61,687 nucleotides of DNA from Planctomycetia bacterium (lineage in GTDB: Bacteria > Planctomycetota > Planctomycetia > Pirellulales > UBA7805), in contig JAIOQB010000204.1 of NCBI GenBank assembly GCA_021413585.1, forward strand, positions 1 to 61,687, in the 5' to 3' direction. A model generated the notes under the pieces. It was not told the DNA's origin. It did not search any database and saw only the letters and a list, made by a program, of their open reading frames with translations. The first letter of the stretch is position 1. Each line of letters starts with the position of its first letter. Of this stretch, positions 46 through 61,687 are shown piece after piece. A program made the position numbers and the translations under genes.

Positions 46-1092
46 TCATGGTTGCGCTGATAGCATCAGCGTGCTATCGCGGCGTTCGGCCCGAATCGTT
101 CCAGGAAACATTGCCGCGCGTTCGCCTTCGGCCGCATTGGATTGGGCCAGGACGCGAAGTTGCTCCCACTGCTCAAACCCCATCGCCTGCTGCGGCCATT
201 GTTGTTGCGTCCAGAGGGAGACGAACAATTCGCGAACCAGATAAGGGTGAACGTCCGCGAGTTGGCGGCAATCGATCGCGAGATTTGTTGCCGTAGTTGT
301 CGCCGTAGCTTGGGTGCTTGCACCCACAGAATGCATTACGGCTAGGTCGCGAAGGCGATCGACAAGCTCAGTAATGATCTGCCGCTCCTCGCTCGCCAAA
401 GTGGCCAGCCGCAGCACTGCGTCGTCGACATGGGCGTTGTATTGCGTGCGGAGCAGCGGCAGCAGTTCGCGCCGCACGCGGTTGCGCGTGAATCGCACAT
501 CGGCATTCGACGCGTCCTCCCGATACGTTTGGCCAATCGCCGTCAGATAGTCGATCACGTCGGTGCGGCGACAAGTCAGCAGCGGGCGCAGTAGCGTGAC
601 CGCGTCGCCGAGCGAACGGGTGCGCGGGATGCCGGCCAGCCCCGCCACGCCGGTGCCGCGTAGCAATCGCCACAGCACGGTCTCCACCTGGTCGTCGGCC
701 GTGTGCGCGACGGCGACATAGCGAAGCCCCTGCCCTTCCGCCGTTCGTTTGAGGAATGCATAGCGCGCCTCGCGCCCAGTGGTCTCCAACGATTGGCCCG
801 ACCGCGCGGCTTCCGCCGCCACATCCGCGCGTCCGACGTGACATGGAACGGAAAGGCCGCGGCACAGTTCGACCACGAACTGCTCGTCGGCATCCGCCTC
901 CGCACCGCGCAGGCTGTGGTTGAGGTGAGCGACTTGGACCACCTGGCCGTCGGCCGGGCAAAGTGCGGCCATCGCCCGCAGCAGGGCCACACTGTCGGCC
1001 CCGCCGGAAACGCCGATCAATACACCCACCGGCTGCCAATCCGCTGGCGGCCAAACTTCGGCCAGTCGTGTTTCAAAGGGATGCAGAGTCAT
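46..1092 (-). CDS. tilS: tRNA(Ile)-lysidine synthetase
   Basis: PP-loop GVSGGADSVALL, AHLNHSLRG, AVAHTADDQVETVL and RNRVR motifs. Start set at ATG 1092 (MTLHPFE). Contains an in-frame REP at 304-328. Confidence 0.95.
   Translation of the reverse strand: MTLHPFETRLAEVWPPADWQPVGVLIGVSGGADSVALLRAMAALCPADGQVVQVAHLNHSLRGAEADADEQFVVELCRGLSVPCHVGRADVAAEAARSGQSLETTGREARYAFLKRTAEGQGLRYVAVAHTADDQVETVLWRLLRGTGVAGLAGIPRTRSLGDAVTLLRPLLTCRRTDVIDYLTAIGQTYREDASNADVRFTRNRVRRELLPLLRTQYNAHVDDAVLRLATLASEERQIITELVDRLRDLAVMHSVGASTQATATTTATNLAIDCRQLADVHPYLVRELFVSLWTQQQWPQQAMGFEQWEQLRVLAQSNAAEGERAAMFPGTIRAERRDSTLMLSAQP
304..328 (+). repeat. GTAG-type REP inside the tilS coding sequence
   Basis: CGTAGCTTGGGTGCTTGCACCCACA; reads VGASTQATA in the tilS frame. 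Confidence 0.85.
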
Positions 1093-10358: not shown

Positions 10359-12266
10359 ATGAAGGCGGCATTCAAGCGGGCGTTGGTCGTGCGGGTGTTT
10401 GTCGTGTTGCTGCTGGTGTCGATGCTGGTTTGCCCATGGACGGCGCGTGCCATGGCGCAAGTAGGCGCCGCCGGCAAAGGCTCTGTCACCGCTGCATTGG
10501 ATCGCCGCGGCGATTTTCACTTTGAGCGCATGCACCTGCAAGACATCGTTCAATCGCTGCGCGAGCAATTTAAGATCGATATTCGTATTGATAAAAAGGC
10601 GCTCGACGACGTCGGGGTTGACTCCGATAAAGAACTGGCGATCAAGAGCTTCCAGGAGAGAAAGAAGGACTTCGCCAAGAAAATGGCTTCCCAGCTTAAC
10701 AGCATGGGGCTTCGCATCGCCGCCAATGACGATTTATTCAAGCAGATACGAGAATTGCAGTACCCAGGTTTGAGCTTTGAAATCTCAGATGTTTCACTTC
10801 GGTCGGCTTTGCATCACTTCTTGCACGAACTCGACGATAGTGTGACGATTGCCGTGCAGGACGACATTTTGTGGATTACCACCAAGGAAGGCGCAGAGCG
10901 GAATCTCCAGGTCCACGTTTATGTTGTTGACGATTTGGCACATGCCTCCCCATTGCATATTCCAGCGGAGTCGCCGTTTGAGTCGCTTCCCCAGGCGGGA
11001 ACACCATCAGAATACGATTTTGAACCGTTGCGTCAGATATTATTCGGTACCATCGCCCCCGACTCTTGGGACGAGGCCGGTGGTCCAGGTTCGATCCGCG
11101 ACGGAAACGGCTCGCTGACGGTCTCGCAAACCTCCGAAATGCATGAAGAAATCGAGGCCTTATTGGCGGCATTGCGCAACGTGCGTGCCAAGGCAAAGCA
11201 ACCCGAACTAGGCTACGAGCCAATTGCGGTATCGGTCTCGGCGCCTGCCGCTCAGCGCGAGGAAATGATCACGGCGGCGCTGGAGAAGCGAGCTGACTTT
11301 GAACTTCAGAATGCCACGCTGGCTCAGATGATTAAGTTTATAGAGAAGAATTACAAGATTCATGTGCAACTTGATCAGGCATCGCTGGAGAAAGTCGGAG
11401 TCTCTGACGACACGCCTATTTCGCTTCACCAGCGAAACTCGACGCTGCGGGGAGTGCTGGAATCGCTATCTCGCTTAATTACGCCGACGCTGACGTTCAC
11501 CATCGATCATGAAGTCCTGTTAATCACGACGCATGAAGGAGCGTGTGAGAGACCGAAGGTAGTGATCTACCCGGTGCGCGATCTGGTGATCGCCGCCATG
11601 ACGGCTCCCGACGCGGAGAATCGCCCCGACCTGTGGGACTTTCAGCCGCTGATGGACAATATCAAGGGGAGCATCAACTCCGAGGGTTGGGACGACGCGG
11701 GCGGTGTGGGTTCGATCTCCGTCGATTCGGTCGCCGGGGCCTTGGTGATCTCGCAAACCGATGCCGTGCATCACGAGATTGTCGGCCTGCTCGGCGAGTT
11801 GCGACGGGTTGCCCTGGCACGGCCGAAAGTCAAGCGGCCGCCGGCCGAGGTTCAGCGCGACGCCGACCCGTACGTCACCGTCGTGTTCCGCCTCTGGCAG
11901 CCGTACAAGGAACAGGCCGTGGTCAAAGAGGCGGACCTGGTCAAGGTGATTCAGGAAATGGTTGCGCCAAAGAGTTGGCATGGGGAAGAGGTGTTTGTGC
12001 GAGTCCTGCCCAGCCGGCTCATCATTCGTCAGCGCGCTTCCGTACAGCGGATGATCTATGCGGCGCTGCAACGCCTGTCTGTGCTCAAGCCGGACGACGA
12101 GTCCGACAAGACTGGCAAACCCGACCAGCCGGCAAAGCCCAATAAACCCGAAAAAGGGAACAAGGGTTTCGGCGGAGGCGCATTTGGCGGCGGCACGTTC
12201 GGTGGGGGACAAGGAGGTTTTGGCGGATTCCAAGGCGCCGGGCAATTGCCCGGCGTTGGGAATTAA
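10359..12266 (+). CDS. exported protein with repeated secretin N-terminal (STN/NolW-like) modules
   Basis: Signal peptide; repeated TIAPDSWDEAGGPGSI and SINSEGWDDAGGVGSI blocks; Gly-rich tail; AAAGGA RBS. Confidence 0.75.
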   Translation: MKAAFKRALVVRVFVVLLLVSMLVCPWTARAMAQVGAAGKGSVTAALDRRGDFHFERMHLQDIVQSLREQFKIDIRIDKKALDDVGVDSDKELAIKSFQERKKDFAKKMASQLNSMGLRIAANDDLFKQIRELQYPGLSFEISDVSLRSALHHFLHELDDSVTIAVQDDILWITTKEGAERNLQVHVYVVDDLAHASPLHIPAESPFESLPQAGTPSEYDFEPLRQILFGTIAPDSWDEAGGPGSIRDGNGSLTVSQTSEMHEEIEALLAALRNVRAKAKQPELGYEPIAVSVSAPAAQREEMITAALEKRADFELQNATLAQMIKFIEKNYKIHVQLDQASLEKVGVSDDTPISLHQRNSTLRGVLESLSRLITPTLTFTIDHEVLLITTHEGACERPKVVIYPVRDLVIAAMTAPDAENRPDLWDFQPLMDNIKGSINSEGWDDAGGVGSISVDSVAGALVISQTDAVHHEIVGLLGELRRVALARPKVKRPPAEVQRDADPYVTVVFRLWQPYKEQAVVKEADLVKVIQEMVAPKSWHGEEVFVRVLPSRLIIRQRASVQRMIYAALQRLSVLKPDDESDKTGKPDQPAKPNKPEKGNKGFGGGAFGGGTFGGGQGGFGGFQGAGQLPGVGN

Positions 12267-12331
12267 ATCCGGCCGCAGAGGAATGCCATCTGCGGTGACG
12301 GAGAGCATAGCGTCAGTTTCTTACGGGTTGG

Positions 12332-58339: not shown

Positions 58340-58562
58340 GTGTTATGCGCGGTATGTGTCGTTGTCACGACGCTTGTGCTCCTCAAGAACATTCACAATG
58401 TTCTTTGGTCGGGGCACGATCCACTATTGTAATCGATTGCGAAACAATACGAAAACGACCAGATCCTCCGAAATCTTGACGACGGACGCCGCCCGCTCGC
58501 AAGACAACTCGTGGTTGGTAGTGTCTTAATCCTGTGTGCAGCCGCCTCTTTGCGTAGAGATT

Positions 58563-58838
58563 CTAACCTCGACGCAAAGCTACAAGCGAGATAACCGCGA
58601 GCAACACCATGACTAGAAAGCCGCCGCACGTTTGCCCAAATAAATGCTTAGCCAATAGCTTGTCGCCGTCATAAGGGGCGATTTTCCCCACGGTACGCAG
58701 ATTGCGGAGATCGCGCCACGAAATGAACCAAGAGACGGGAAATCCGTTTGAGCGTAGCAAAGCCTTTGCCCGATGCCAGTTGGCGAATACTATCACGACC
58801 GTCCAGAACAGACAAAATGAAAAGATGGCGACAATCAT
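58563..58838 (-). CDS. small two-TM hypothetical protein
   Basis: Two hydrophobic segments; A/T-richer. Confidence 0.55.
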   Translation of the reverse strand: MIVAIFSFCLFWTVVIVFANWHRAKALLRSNGFPVSWFISWRDLRNLRTVGKIAPYDGDKLLAKHLFGQTCGGFLVMVLLAVISLVALRRG

Positions 58839-58878
58839 ATAAGCATCCCCCGGATCGTGAATTGGAAGCGGGGCGGGG

Positions 58879-59139
58879 TCATGGGGGTGGTGGATTTGGT
58901 TCTTTGGTCCGGCTTCGATGGCGTCGCTTTGAAGCCGAAACAGTGGCCCAAATCATTGCCCAAGCAAGCAATAAAAGATATGGCAGGACGATGAAGATAG
59001 GAAGCATATCTGGCTTAGCGCCGCCCGTCACTGGCCGGGGACGGAAAGCCGCGTCCAAGCAATTCAATCCGACAAATGTCGCGACCGCCAAAACGATCTT
59101 CAGGCCAGACAGAAACCGGCTTTTTGGTTTTTCTTCCAT
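58879..59139 (-). CDS. small two-TM hypothetical protein
   Basis: Two hydrophobic segments; basic and Pro-rich tail. Confidence 0.55.
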   Translation of the reverse strand: MEEKPKSRFLSGLKIVLAVATFVGLNCLDAAFRPRPVTGGAKPDMLPIFIVLPYLLLLAWAMIWATVSASKRRHRSRTKEPNPPPP

Positions 59140-59383
59140 GGCCCTGATTCTAGCAGGGGGCGGGGGGGCAGATTCTGAACCTTGAATTTGGGCCGAAGGT
59201 CGATATGCTCACGGGACGAGGTGGTGGCTTGGCTGTCCCGCTGGCATCGCCTGCATCGGGCCACCGCAAGCCGCGAACCGCCGTGTGTACGCTTGTGTCC
59301 GAAGATGTTACGCTTGTTGACGTTGTGTACACGCTTTGTCTACAAGTTGTCGGCGCAACTTCTTTGGTGGCCTAACTTTCCGT

Positions 59384-59412
59384 TTGACAAGGCCTCAGTT
59401 TTCAAGTATGTT
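59384..59412 (+). promoter_or_regulatory. sigma70-type promoter
   Basis: TTGACA-N17-TATGTT. Confidence 0.65.
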
Positions 59413-59468
59413 TGGACGATGTTACGGATGTTGCAGCCGAATGGCGTCAGCCGTCCCGAATGGAATTT

Positions 59469-59501
59469 GGGCTGCTCCCTGGAGGGCGGCCCTGTTTTTT
59501 T
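59469..59501 (+). terminator. intrinsic terminator-like hairpin before the DUF3467-like gene
   Basis: GGGCTGCTC/GGGCGGCCC 9-bp stem followed by TGTTTTTTT. Confidence 0.6.
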
Positions 59502-59510
59502 GCGCAGATA

Positions 59511-59807
59511 ATGATGGAAAGCCAGCAACAAAAATATCAGATTCAATTTCCCGTCGATGGTGGACCCGTAACGCTTGTAAATAACGTCATCGGGCAAGCA
59601 GATCCGGTCGAGGGCTTGGTGTATCTATTATTTACACAGTCACCGCCGCCTATTCATTTGGAAGAAGTGTCAGACGTTCATACTATCAAATCCATCCCCG
59701 TGGCGCGGGTCGCATTAACACTTAACAAGGCGAAAAGCGTATTGGCTTTACTCCAAAAGCAGATAGCTGCTATTGAATCGTATGAGGAGGGGGACAGCAA
59801 TGACTAA
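59511..59807 (+). CDS. DUF3467-like small protein
   Basis: VNNVIG...LLFTQ.PPP...VARVALTL.KAKSVL.LL pattern. Confidence 0.65.
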   Translation: MMESQQQKYQIQFPVDGGPVTLVNNVIGQADPVEGLVYLLFTQSPPPIHLEEVSDVHTIKSIPVARVALTLNKAKSVLALLQKQIAAIESYEEGDSND

Positions 59808-60006
59808 AGCCATGCTAGACAGTTCCAGGAGGAGAACGGTAGTTACAAACGTCCTGGGATCGGCAGTCTGCTTTACAGATAGCCAGAACGACGAATATTG
59901 GGGCACGGACAAAGACTGGGAAGAGGTCAATCGGTCAATGCCGCTAGGGCCCCAGATCGCCGCCGTCGCCGATTATATGGAAAGAACAGGACAAGCATCG
60001 GCGTAG
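59800..60006 (+). CDS. 68-aa hypothetical protein (possible antitoxin)
   Basis: GAGGAGG RBS; overlaps the upstream stop; directly precedes the PemK-like gene. Confidence 0.6.
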   Translation: MTKAMLDSSRRRTVVTNVLGSAVCFTDSQNDEYWGTDKDWEEVNRSMPLGPQIAAVADYMERTGQASA

Positions 60007-60012
60007 CGGCTC

Positions 60013-60405
60013 GTGCCAGATATAACACTCCAAATTGGCGCTATAGCGTGGGCTCGGGTTCGCGAGCCCACGATTGAGCGACGGCTGCTTGAAGAACATC
60101 CGACCGTCGTTTTGAGTACGAACGAGGAAATTGCCAACGGCGATAACCTCTGGGTGGCTGTTGTTACGACGACATACAGCATCCCTCTTCCATTCGGGCA
60201 ATTCTATTTGCCCACCATGCCACAGCCGGGCGGTCATCCACAGACTGGGCTTACGCAAGCGTGCGTCGTAAAGGGAACTTGGCTGGACGAAATTGCACAA
60301 GACAGTGTGCAAAGAATCACTGGCCGCGCCCCTATAGCAGTCGTTAAAAAGTTGCGCGATTGGATTCTTAGCAAAAAGCGCGAACAATCCGAAGGCCCAG
60401 AGTGA
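60013..60405 (+). CDS. PemK/MazF-like toxin family protein
   Basis: G.IAW, HPTVVLS, VAVVTTT, GHPQTGL..CVVK..WL..I, G.AP layout. Confidence 0.75.
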   Translation: MPDITLQIGAIAWARVREPTIERRLLEEHPTVVLSTNEEIANGDNLWVAVVTTTYSIPLPFGQFYLPTMPQPGGHPQTGLTQACVVKGTWLDEIAQDSVQRITGRAPIAVVKKLRDWILSKKREQSEGPE

Positions 60406-60441
60406 CATTAACCTGTGGCCGTTCTCCCACGCTAACTGTAT

Positions 60442-60534
60442 GGAGAGCGGCCCGCGCCTTGGACGGCGCAGCGGCCTTATAAACCGCCCCAGGGGACGGC
60501 ATGCGCCGGCTGGGTTCGATTCCCCCTCTCTCCG
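60442..60534 (+). tRNA. non-canonical tRNA-like RNA: 9-bp acceptor / 3-bp T-stem (allo-tRNA type), anticodon UAU, long variable arm, G discriminator, no encoded CCA
   Basis: GGAGAGCGG/CCTCTCTCC; D arm GCGCC-TTGGAC-GGCGC; anticodon arm GCGGC-CTTATAA-ACCGC; variable arm CGGC-ATGC-GCCG; T arm GGG-TTCGATT-CCC. Confidence 0.78.
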
Positions 60535-60535
60535 C

Positions 60536-60712
60536 TTAGCGCTTCTGTGCGCGCCCAGCGGCCCTCAGAAGCGTCTCACGCGCCCAGGTAGCCATTTTCC
60601 CGCTGGCAGCTTTATCCAGCGACTTGGCCTCTTCCGGCGTGAAACGTATTTCCAGACGCTCTGTGTGGCGTTCCGCGGCTTTCTTCGGGGGTCGGCCCCT
60701 CTTGGATTCCAT
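60536..60712 (-). CDS. 58-aa ribbon-helix-helix DNA-binding protein (absent from the ORF track)
   Basis: Hand translation MESKRGRPPKKAAERHTERLEIRFTPEEAKSLDKAASGKMATWARETLLRAAGRAQKR*. Confidence 0.8.
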   Translation of the reverse strand: MESKRGRPPKKAAERHTERLEIRFTPEEAKSLDKAASGKMATWARETLLRAAGRAQKR

Positions 60713-60718
60713 AGCCTA

Positions 60719-60780
60719 AATATACCGGTAAAAAATAAATGGTCAAGCCTATTGACGGCCGATATATTTACCGGTAAAAT
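60719..60780. promoter_or_regulatory. divergent sigma70 promoters with two TACCGGTA operators
   Basis: + strand TTGACG(60752)-N17-TAAAAT; - strand TTGACC-N16-TATATT; boxes at 60723-60730 and TTTACCGGTAAA at 60767-60778. Confidence 0.75.
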
Positions 60781-60908
60781 AATCGCATGACAAAGAAAAA
60801 CCCCGCCGACTGTTGAAGCAGCCGCCGGGGCAAGACAACCAGGCCGAAACCTAGAAGCCTCTCGCAAAAGCATTCTAGCATCGGTCGCAGACTCCGAAAG
60901 CCCGACCG

Positions 60909-61687
60909 ATGATTGCTTGTGCCCACGCTGAATACCGAACCAACGGCAAAGACCGCCACGGCAACACCCGCTATCGCTGCCGGTTCTGTGGCAAGACTTG
61001 GGTGGAAGTCCAGCCCGTCAAGCCGCTGGGGGATATGACGGTCCCCGTGGCCGATGCCAAGCTGGTGTTGCGGCTGCTGACTGAGGGATCGTCAATTCGC
61101 AGCGCCGAGCGGATTACGGGCGTCAACCGCAACACGATTTGCAAGCTGCTGGTTTACTTCGGGGAAGCCTGCCAGACGTTCCTGGACAAGCGGATGCAGG
61201 GCCTCACGCTGACTCACCTGCAATTCGACGAGCAGTGGACTTGGGTAGGCAAGAAAAATAGCCGCGTCCACATTGAAGAGCGCCGCGAGCGGGCCGACGT
61301 GGGGGATATTTATGTTTGGACCTGCATCGACCAAAAGACCAAGCTCATGCCCGCGTTCCTGCTGGGGAAGCGTACCGCCGACAATGCCCGCCGGTTTATG
61401 ATGGATGTAGCCAGCCGGCTGGTAATGCCCAAGCCGCACGCCAGCGACGCGCACCGCTACCAAGCTGGCGGATACACCACGATTACCCAGATCAGCACAG
61501 ACGGCTTTGCGGCCTATCCTGAGGCGGTCGATTTGGCCTTTGGCCCCTACGTGAAATACGGCGTGCTGGTGAAGGATTACAAAAACGCGAACATGATCTA
61601 CACCCCCAGCGAAATGGTGGGCAGCAAGCGCAAGGGGATAGTCGGAATAGAGGGGAATCAGAAGTGGTCGATTTGCACTTCGCACGT
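60909..61687 (+). mobile_element. IS1-family DDE transposase (single ORF), truncated by the window end
   Basis: Hand translation: zinc ribbon C..NGKDRHGNTRYRCRFCGKTW, HTH GSSIRSAERITGVNRNTI, QFDEQW, ISTDGFAAY, ICTSH(V..); no stop before the window edge. Confidence 0.92.

Follow-up and report, generated by a model that had tools for sequence, protein, structure and literature searches.

Why would an insertion element of a planctomycete carry its own gene for a transfer RNA (tRNA), and one of unusual shape? This question is raised by contig JAIOQB010000204.1 of a Planctomycetia bacterium (assembly GCA_021413585.1; the source sample is a freshwater metagenome), the whole of which, 61,687 nucleotides in length, is here called the window. 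Close to its right end lies a tRNA gene with the anticodon UAU, and we regard it as practically certain that this gene is real and part of a transposon. The carrier is an IS1-family element, and in the transposase genes linked to such tRNAs the matching codon, AUA, is enriched and stands at fixed places. From these sequence relations we lean, to a modest degree, towards the view that the tRNA acts through AUA decoding for the transposase, that is, as a private AUA decoder that would gate or recode transposase synthesis.

The gene and the parts of it that matter most for its assignment are as follows.

60442..60534, plus strand: allo-tRNA-type gene with 9/3 acceptor/T geometry, anticodon UAU, a long variable arm and the discriminator G (direct reading, covariation in relatives, covariance model).
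60451..60453, plus strand: linker CCC, the 5' strand of an extra 3-bp helix with GGG at 60492-60494 (covariation, 84 sequences).
60492..60494, plus strand: GGG in the variable region, the 3' strand of the extra helix (covariation, 84 sequences).
60478..60480, plus strand: anticodon TAT (UAU), in the loop CTTATAA at 60476-60482 (TAT at positions 34-36 in at least 79 of 84 distinct family members).

Read directly, the acceptor stem pairs GGAGAGCGG (60442-60450) with CCTCTCTCC (60525-60533) over 9 bp with a single mismatch, C7.U. The D arm consists of the 5-bp stem GCGCC/GGCGC and the loop UUGGAC, which includes GG, and the anticodon arm of the stem GCGGC/ACCGC, in which 31:39 is a C.A mismatch, and the loop CUUAUAA. 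The variable region has 24 nt with the 4-bp stem CGGC/GCCG, the T arm combines the 3-bp stem GGG/CCC with the loop UUCGAUU, and the discriminator is the G at 60534. Reading the gene in the 8/4 or 7/5 register leads to mismatches. A CCA end is not encoded, and the ordinary tRNA genes of the host likewise lack it.

Two further copies occur in the genome of the window, with 86% and 80% identity, and 33 of 101 related genomes carry one to six. The relatives collected amount to 84 distinct sequences, all of them from Planctomycetota. In an alignment of 46 copies, the 9/3 cloverleaf pairs in 86.4% of cells (49-61% in slid controls), both sides have changed at 19 of 26 pairs, and RNAalifold independently returned the acceptor, D, anticodon and T stems. 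A covariance model, R1, was then built from the relatives, and the alignment of the 84 sequences to it is therefore model-fitted; in this alignment, 91.3% of cells are paired, against 43-62% in slid controls, and compensatory change is found at 24 of 29 pairs, a level that none of 500 shuffles reached. Looking at the individual parts, the 9 bp of the acceptor are paired in 89.7% of cells with compensatory change at 6 of 9 pairs, the 3 bp of the T stem are paired in 99.2%, and the variable region, which ranges from 15 to 29 nt with 24 as the commonest length, contains a covarying 4-bp stem. The extra helix between the linker and the variable region is paired in 95.1% of cells and shows both-side changes at two of its three pairs, one of which has turned from C:G into U:A in 8 sequences, the other from C:G into G:C in 2 and into U:A in 1. 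Covariation thus supports five stems and the additional 3-bp helix. The original prediction, which was made from the letters of the window alone, had proposed a 9/3 allo-tRNA-type gene of the kind reported by Mukai et al. in 2017 (PMC5389517) and had named a lack of covariation in homologues as one of the observations that would speak against it; the cloverleaf is held by covariation throughout the relatives.

The conserved nucleotides point in the same direction. The discriminator G73 is present in all 84 distinct sequences, the anticodon loop reads YUUAUAA or YUUAUAC in 67 of them, and the acceptor begins with GGAGAG in 57. The D arm keeps a stem of 5 bp and a 5-6-nt loop, UUGGN(N), with conserved G18G19. 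The T-loop is conserved as well, and where it reads AUCGUAA, as it does in 12 sequences, the change from U54.A58 to A54.U58 retains the tertiary elbow pair. The UAU anticodon, the long variable arm and G73, all of which had been claimed from the single sequence, are hence confirmed in the gene itself and in its family. Also the two irregular pairs recur, with C7.U in 43 of 84 and an unpaired 31:39 in 39 of 84 members, and they are family traits and not signs of decay of the window copy. The comparison with a covariance model that had been suggested at the outset gives 99.3 bits for the window copy against R1, the third best of 90 matches, which argues against a decayed member.

These results bear directly on a proposal of the original prediction, according to which the alternative pairing CCCAG/CTGGG could turn the gene into a conformational switch or mark it as a decaying pseudo-tRNA. 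The minimum free energy fold of the single sequence indeed uses this pairing, and the copy does have two stem mismatches. The single-sequence fold is, with z = -0.31 for this GC-rich sequence, not better than that of shuffles, so that the case for a structured RNA rests on the relatives, and across these the alternative pairing is at chance level (62.0% of cells against a shuffle mean of 61.2%) and without covariation. As the mismatches are shared by the family and the model score ranks the copy so high, we give the switch or pseudo-tRNA next to no probability.

At four other loci (L014, L036, L017 and L026; tRNA-like at about 1501-1592 or 2501-2592) the homology ends just past the T loop or T stem, and unrelated sequence takes the place of the 3' acceptor strand; L014 and L036 share the continuation ...CCCCT(T)AGGC. 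Such truncated copies may reflect a recombination or insertion break point. Three weak matches to R1 (26-38 bits) that are not called by ARAGORN lie elsewhere in the genome of the window, on contigs C455 (8577-8669, plus strand), C448 (4701-4774, plus strand) and C65 (6000-6091, minus strand). The one on C455 resembles another allo-type tRNA (GGAAGGCG...CGCCTTCCG, loop CCTTTACAT).

That standard scanners may miss the gene had been anticipated, and indeed the window contains no tRNA according to ARAGORN, and the gene stays below the gathering score of every Rfam family. At relaxed thresholds, the Rfam model of tRNA-Sec (RF01852) spans exactly 60442-60533 with 30.4 bits. An identity as tRNA-Sec is not supported by this score, which is below the cut-off of 47, nor by the anticodon, which is UAU and not UCA. 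A canonical bacterial tRNA-Ile(UAU) or tRNA-Ile2 does not fit either, as the window gene has 9/3 geometry, a long arm and G73, and is not a 7/5 class-I tRNA with A73.

What, then, carries this gene? The tRNA lies inside an IS1-family transposon of about 3.4 kb, which extends from 58517 to 265 nt beyond the end of the window, the latter part being found on contig C327 of the same genome. The features of this element within the window are listed here.

58511..58516, no strand: GTGGTT, left copy of a short direct repeat and probable 6-7 bp target-site duplication (CTCGTGGTT is followed by GGTAGTG in the window; GTGGTT stands right after ...GACACTACC in C327).
58517..58539, plus strand: left terminal inverted repeat GGTAGTGTCTTAATCCTGTGTGC, a perfect 23-nt reverse complement of the right end.
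58540..60381, no strand: passenger (cargo) region with the candidate open reading frames (ORFs) 58563-58838 (minus), 59412-59807 (plus), 59773-60006 (plus) and 60013-60405 (plus), from the ORF list.
60536..60712, minus strand: ribbon-helix-helix (RHH) gene of 58 aa starting with MESKRGRPPK, convergent with the tRNA, its stop 2 nt from the tRNA 3' end.
60909..61687, plus strand: IS1-family DDE transposase gene, truncated where the contig stops; C327 holds the remainder of the ORF and, at C327:406, the end of the right inverted repeat.

In this assembly, the right end of the transposon is thus seen not in the window but on a different contig. This end lies 9-12 nt past the transposase stop codon, where the copies of the same genome on C327, C424 and C340 diverge. 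In the metagenome, the word depth rises from about 8 in the unique cargo to about 16-17 in the transposase (window 60440-60560, 60800-61687), and C327 and C424 share the last 141 nt of the window. Both observations imply that the right half is present in two or more nearly identical copies, and this accounts for the end of the contig within the transposase gene.

The assignment to the IS1 family is clearest for a paralogue on contig C38, which matches the Pfam domain DDE_Tnp_IS1 (PF03400) with 46.2 bits at a cut-off of 24.1; the partial transposase of the window matches only DDE_Tnp_IS240, with 22.5 bits and below the cut-off of 27, and it aligns in one family with the C38 paralogue. The convergent ORF is a regular companion, and in most loci its stop is found 1-7 nt from the tRNA 3' end. 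Among 15 of the RHH proteins, Pfam gives NikA-like matches for 9, RHH_1 for 3 and AT_hook for 2, mostly below cut-off, while a PDB sequence search with the RHH profile returned noise only. Between the tRNA end and the RHH stop there is no terminator.

The conserved core of the element, in constant order, consists of the tRNA(UAU), the convergent RHH gene and the IS1-family transposase. In about 40 of 51 loci the transposase starts 450-540 nt downstream of the tRNA start on the same strand, with the small convergent RHH ORF abutting the tRNA. Conversely, 42 of 80 further transposase loci have a strong R1 match 400-520 nt upstream, and about 27 of 30 tRNA-bearing genomes also possess the transposase (counted from tables, among the 101 related genomes). 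The host names in the records of exact-pattern matches and transposase loci are, almost without exception, those of metagenome-assembled genomes of Pirellulales, Pirellulaceae, Planctomycetaceae and Thermoguttaceae. The tRNA family is common in Planctomycetota, and its hosts are not the Acidobacteria, which the original prediction had named, beside metagenomes, as the main source of such tRNAs.

The cargo is variable between loci, which accounts for the sharp boundary of inter-locus homology within 2 nt of the tRNA 5' end. The tRNA 5' end was considered as a transposon terminus and rejected, since the sequence to the right contains no inverted copy of it and the true left repeat is found 1.9 kb upstream; other loci have a left end of this type at a distance of 250 to more than 700 nt before the tRNA. 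The cargo ORFs of the window have no Pfam match even at E<=1. A PemK/MazF toxin as conserved partner was dismissed, as among about 51 loci only one, with the copy on contig C43, has a PemK_toxin gene upstream, and the upstream ORF of the window shows, with no Pfam match at E<=1, only a pairwise similarity at E = 0.077. A short dispersed repeat of about 40-50 nt lies within the cargo (59112-59166); at least 14 other contigs of the genome carry it with 83-95% identity. Upstream of a tRNA-less transposase copy at locus L152 (747-899, minus strand), a group II intron D1-D4 match of 71.8 bits, above the gathering score, was recorded.

The link between tRNA and transposase is found in the codons of the latter. 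In the first 27 full tRNA-linked transposase genes, ATA makes up 74 of 381 Ile codons and occurs at least once in every gene, whereas in long ORFs of the genome to which the window belongs (62% G+C) its share of the Ile codons is 6.7%, corresponding to 2.7 per 1000 codons. Within the same genome set, the tRNA-linked transposase clades have 8.7 ATA per 1000 codons and a sister clade, upstream of which no tRNA-like gene was found, has 2.8 (Fisher p = 5.5e-5, with the sequences treated as independent despite shared ancestry). The share of ATT in ATT+ATC is similar in both clades, about 0.34-0.36, so that base composition is not the cause of the ATA excess. The codons are also fixed in position and concentrate between the second Asp and the Glu of the DDE triad.

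Family hot spots of ATA, with the codon in brackets at its residue: GT(ATA)IKEY; the pair after Y(T/S)Pxx; G(ATA)xG(ATA); the Ile before (C/T)TSH(V/I)ER.
61638-40 and 61647-49 (span 61638..61649), plus strand: two AUA codons of the window transposase, codons 244 and 247, in G-I-V-G-I-E, at a family AUA hot spot.

In an independent set of 80 loci, the Ile before (C/T)TS..ER is encoded by ATA in 61 of 66 subfamily-1 genes, and in 43 of the 44 that have an adjacent tRNA, and the synonymous sites that neighbor the conserved ATA vary. Most members of subfamily 2 have a tandem ATA-ATA after YSPxx. The sole subfamily-1 copy with a nearby left end and without a tRNA (L063, identical to L172) has no ATA at all. 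In the RHH genes (n=48) ATA is modest, with 6.0 per 1000 codons and no fixed position. In the window itself, ATA accounts for 2 of 8 and 3 of 10 Ile codons in cargo ORFs (59412-60405) and for the only Ile codon of the RHH gene (60536-60712).

Could these codons be incidental, the tRNA acting on the host at large? A general mistranslating or toxic tRNA might convert AUA to Ser throughout the proteome under stress, or form an addiction or defense module with the cargo. The approximately 2.7 AUA per 1000 host codons would be open to such misreading, the ECF-like motif described below suggests stress control, and a PemK_toxin gene does lie upstream of the C43 copy. Moreover, six allo-tRNA(UAU) that were converted to the anticodon CUA did not suppress amber codons in E. 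coli and two were toxic, and allo-tRNAs often lie near toxin-antitoxin genes (PMC5389517). However, the upstream cargo is not conserved, as the single PemK locus and the unmatched ORF of the window illustrate, it is the RHH gene and the transposase that are conserved as partners, and an ATA that is fixed in 61 of 66 transposases is unexpected for incidental codons. We consider a toxic or general mistranslating function very unlikely. The original prediction had described a missense tRNA at AUA, and of this claim the AUA decoder is plausible, but the fixed codons of the transposase point to a task that is private to the element and not to general missense.

The anticodon is retained even where the body of the tRNA is not. 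Five loci of this transposase family (L060, L061, L077, L079 and, in the genome of the window, C340) have a second scaffold next to the transposase gene. It is about 102 nt long and canonical in its 7/5 class-II shape, its D arm is Ser-type, its discriminator is G73 and its loop reads CTTATAA; against the Rfam tRNA model it scores 45-59 bits. The transposase on C340 is 92% identical to that of the window but is accompanied by a different RHH gene, which indicates a reshuffling between the left and the right half of the core. The C340 copy of this UAU tRNA-like gene (about 12195-12294; the same as L094 1760-1859, minus strand) has about 100 nt, the 7/5 shape, the Ser-type D arm, a long arm and G73. 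A third scaffold beside this transposase family has only about 70 nt, its D arm is reduced, and it combines G3:U70 and A73 with the loop YTTATAA; the Rfam models for tmRNA and mascRNA give weak matches to it.

Copies of the third scaffold: L078 356-423 (plus); L068 1812-1878 (minus); L143 727-794; L149 743-810.

At L068 and L078 a further irregular tRNA stands before it, either long-armed with a GUC anticodon or short-armed with GCU. That three unrelated scaffolds share one anticodon loop argues that the anticodon is the selected feature.

This is of importance for a quite different explanation, namely that the gene encodes a tRNA-shaped RNA without translational use. Such a regulatory or cis-acting RNA of the transposon could be a processing or stability signal for RNase P/Z, an antisense RNA to the convergent RHH mRNA, or a cofactor bound by the transposase or the RHH protein. 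The six anticodon-converted relatives were inactive in E. coli, and their authors proposed a non-translational role (PMC5389517). In the present family, the stem mismatches at C7.U and 31:39 are conserved, and the tRNA end and the RHH stop strictly abut in convergent orientation without a terminator between them. A non-translational RNA would leave unexplained, however, why a whole Ile-type loop (C32 U33 UAU A37 A38) recurs on the three scaffolds, why G73 is invariant and the elbow contacts covary, and why the matching codon is enriched and positionally fixed in the neighboring gene. We regard this explanation as unlikely.

If the tRNA does decode, it is not the only means by which the host can read AUA. 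The window itself contains the host gene tilS, which encodes lysidine synthetase (457-1023, minus strand; 187.5 bits at a cut-off of 93.6), and a typical tRNA-Ile2(CAU) is present on contig C189. The element's tRNA would hence be an additional AUA decoder, in agreement with the original remark on the rarity of UAU tRNAs in bacteria that have tilS. The same genome has an array of 33 tRNA genes within about 6.5 kb (contig C231, 16590-23048), many of them irregular in length. Among them are a 7/5 tRNA-Ile(UAU) of canonical appearance and two unusual CAU tRNAs of 70 nt, and the array looks like a mobile or phage-type tRNA island.

With which amino acid would the element's tRNA be charged? The original prediction had inferred recognition by seryl-tRNA synthetase from the long arm and the discriminator. 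The first six acceptor pairs, GGAGAG, and G73 are those of the host tRNA-Ser(GCU), and together with the long arm these features make serine the most likely charge; this part of the prediction stands as a reasonable reading of the sequence, and our confidence in serine is tentative and falls a little short of even. At the ATA sites homologues hold Ile, Met, Val or Cys, so that Ser at these sites would be a real recoding. A private isoleucine decoder, by contrast, would be charged with Ile via its anticodon loop, add scarce AUA capacity and leave the transposase sequence normal. Its loop, CUUAUAA, differs from tRNA-Ile loops only at position 34 (CUGAUAA and CUCAUAA in the host), Ile, Val or Met are found at the ATA sites of homologues, and the loss of function that followed conversion to CUA (PMC5389517) would be expected if charging depends on the anticodon. 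The body of the tRNA does not fit with this, as it is Ser-like in its long arm and its GGAGAG acceptor, and the short scaffold bears the Ala determinant G3:U70. Furthermore, G73 is invariant, whereas the host tRNA-Ile genes (GAU, CAU) are 7/5 and the Ile, Leu and Tyr tRNAs of the host carry A73. According to the E. coli identity rules, bacterial isoleucyl-tRNA synthetase prefers A73, which counts against an Ile decoder as well, and we hold it to be distinctly unlikely.

The upstream sequences suggest how the tRNA gene could be controlled. Aligned at fixed distance from the tRNA they reveal no motif, and upstream of the window tRNA no sigma-70-like site is present. After anchoring on a recurrent GCGAAC, a family motif of two boxes became apparent, (c)GCGAACC and, after a spacer, (c)GTGTC. 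Of 85 loci, 52 have the pattern GAAC-N17/18-GTC in the 150 nt that precede the tRNA. By comparison, the adjoining interval further upstream contains it in 2 of 85, the opposite strand in 6 of 85 and the interior of the element in 3 of 85. We take these AAC and GTC boxes to resemble promoters of extracytoplasmic function (ECF) sigma factors (AAC ... CGT/GTC).

60380..60406, plus strand: ECF-sigma-like promoter motif, GCGAAC at 60380-85, 16 nt, GTGAC at 60402-06 (family two-box motif).
60719..60780, no strand: back-to-back sigma-70-like promoters in the interval between the RHH and transposase genes, TTGACC-16-TATATT at 60746..60719 (minus) and TTGACG-17-TAAAAT at 60752..60780 (plus); 3 sites against 0.3 expected.

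Within the latter promoters the box TACCGGTAAAA is repeated, by direct reading, at 60723-33 and 60769-79, and it may represent the operators of the RHH protein and thus a repressor switch.

Taken together, the mechanism that we favor would proceed as follows. The tRNA would be transcribed from its own ECF-sigma-like promoter, processed and supplied with CCA as the host tRNAs are, and aminoacylated, most likely with serine. It would then read AUA on the ribosome, its target being the mRNA of the element's own transposase, where this rare codon stands at fixed places just before the catalytic Glu motif. The element would in this way set both the speed of transposase synthesis and the residue inserted (Ser instead of, or mixed with, the Ile of the host), which would amount to a gate on transposition that acts in translation and is private to the element. 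Repression of the divergent promoters would fall to the RHH protein, and as RHH transcription is convergent into the tRNA gene, it could couple both controls.

A bolder version would be a programmed mistranslation as a means of transposon control, in which a stress (ECF) promoter drives a tRNA(UAU) of Ser identity, or of Ala identity on the short scaffold, that recodes AUA near the catalytic Glu. The transposase would then exist in an Ile form, made via the host tRNA-Ile2, and a Ser or Ala form, made via the element's tRNA, and if these differ in activity, one being the active enzyme and the other an inhibitor, stress would switch transposition via the genetic code. We think that this is unlikely.

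Several observations weigh against a private AUA decoder for the transposase. The host already decodes AUA via tilS and tRNA-Ile2. The window transposase has ATT and not ATA at the most conserved site, and the difference in ATA between the clades carries no phylogenetic correction. In tRNA-less or ATA-less homologues the ATA positions are occupied by Ile, Met, Val or Cys, among which a Ser would not be obviously functional. Of the subfamily-1 transposases with 1.2 kb of upstream sequence, about 17 of 65 contain ATA without a detectable adjacent tRNA; these copies are possibly supplied in trans by another copy. The promoter of the window is an imperfect one, as its GTGAC deviates from the -10-like GTGTC of the family and fits the relaxed pattern only. 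The mismatches at 31:39 and C7.U, which are present in many members including that of the window, could impair decoding. The single RNA run of the source sample (10 million letters, polyA; among three runs that contain the stretch) gave no signal, the run being too small to inform. Finally, the six allo-tRNA(UAU) converted to CUA showed no amber suppression in E. coli (PMC5389517), a result that is not decisive here because the reporter needs Ser, the host is foreign and the anticodon was changed.

If the AUA decoding for the transposase is true, this would be the first insertion sequence known to have a tRNA of its own, and it would provide a natural example of a single gene controlled at the codon level, possibly with deliberate missense. 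The question of what allo-tRNA(UAU) do now has a defined genetic partner, the IS1-family transposase, defined target codons and a likely stress-type promoter, and the host phylum includes cultivable and genetically tractable members. The scaffolds are also of practical interest, as 9/3 allo-tRNAs already serve as a chassis for genetic code expansion (PMC7609411).

How does this gene compare with known systems? Mukai et al. (Nucleic Acids Res 2017; PMC5389517) reported on allo-tRNAs whose branch is split 8/4 or 9/3, of which those with UAU were the most abundant group, and these allo-tRNA(UAU) have odd cloverleaves with destabilizing mutations that depart from the standard allo-tRNA-Ser. Transposon and toxin-antitoxin genes were noted as neighbors and the function was left open (PMC5389517), which is repeated in a review (PMC7609411). 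The window family shares with this group the 12-bp acceptor branch with a longer acceptor and a shorter T stem, the long variable arm, G73 and further Ser-like features, the UAU anticodon, the destabilizing mismatches and the transposon or toxin-antitoxin neighborhood, and both are missed by standard scanners and picked up by tRNA-Sec models. Comparing by description and not by sequence, the paper places UAU among the anticodons that predominate in 8/4 tRNAs and names others for 9/3, whereas the present family is 9/3; the hosts in the paper are Acidobacteria, Clostridia and Proteobacteria and here Planctomycetota; and the extra 3-bp helix between linker and variable region is found here, while the fixed tRNA-RHH-IS1 order and the AUA codons are not reported in the paper. 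The arms also differ from the tRNA-Sec-like arms of allo-tRNAs, as the D stem has 5 bp with a loop of 5-6 nt and the anticodon stem has 5 and not 6 bp, which is compatible with membership in the UAU subgroup, since this group itself departs from the standard cloverleaf (PMC5389517). On its sequence features, the window gene fits into the published allo-tRNA(UAU) class. A literature search, which was not exhaustive, found no paper in which an allo-tRNA is linked to a transposase or in which an insertion sequence has an AUA tRNA of its own, and the link to AUA codons appears to be unpublished. To our knowledge, there is no insertion sequence with a private tRNA.

A close likeness in principle is bldA of Streptomyces, a tRNA-Leu(UAA) dedicated to the rare codon TTA in a GC-rich genome, by which regulatory genes are gated. 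In both cases a dedicated tRNA would serve a rare codon that is kept in particular genes, but bldA is canonical, correctly charged, host-borne and developmental, whereas the tRNA described here is non-canonical, probably mischarged relative to the code and carried by the very element that bears the codons. Phages and other mobile elements also carry tRNA genes that match their own codon usage, and the fit of the anticodon to codons over-represented in the genes of the element is shared with them. Those tRNAs, however, are normal 7/5 molecules of cognate identity and serve many target genes.

The IS1 family is itself known for translational control, which is exerted via a programmed -1 frameshift between insA and insB'. 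The element of the window has an IS1-family DDE transposase, its ends, GGTAGTG, recall the GGTGATG of IS1, and a transposase output that is limited in translation would be similar. In contrast to IS1, it has a single ORF without frameshift, passenger genes, an RHH regulator and the tRNA, and its flanking repeat has 6-7 bp and not 8-9 bp. With respect to a recoded residue, the tRNA-Ser(CAG) of Candida and Ascoidea, which results in an ambiguous decoding of CUG, provides a close parallel, being likewise a tRNA of Ser identity whose anticodon matches the codon of a hydrophobic residue and which competes with the cognate decoder. That system is genome-wide, chromosomal and eukaryotic, whereas the tRNA described here is the accessory gene of a bacterial transposon and likely has a single target.

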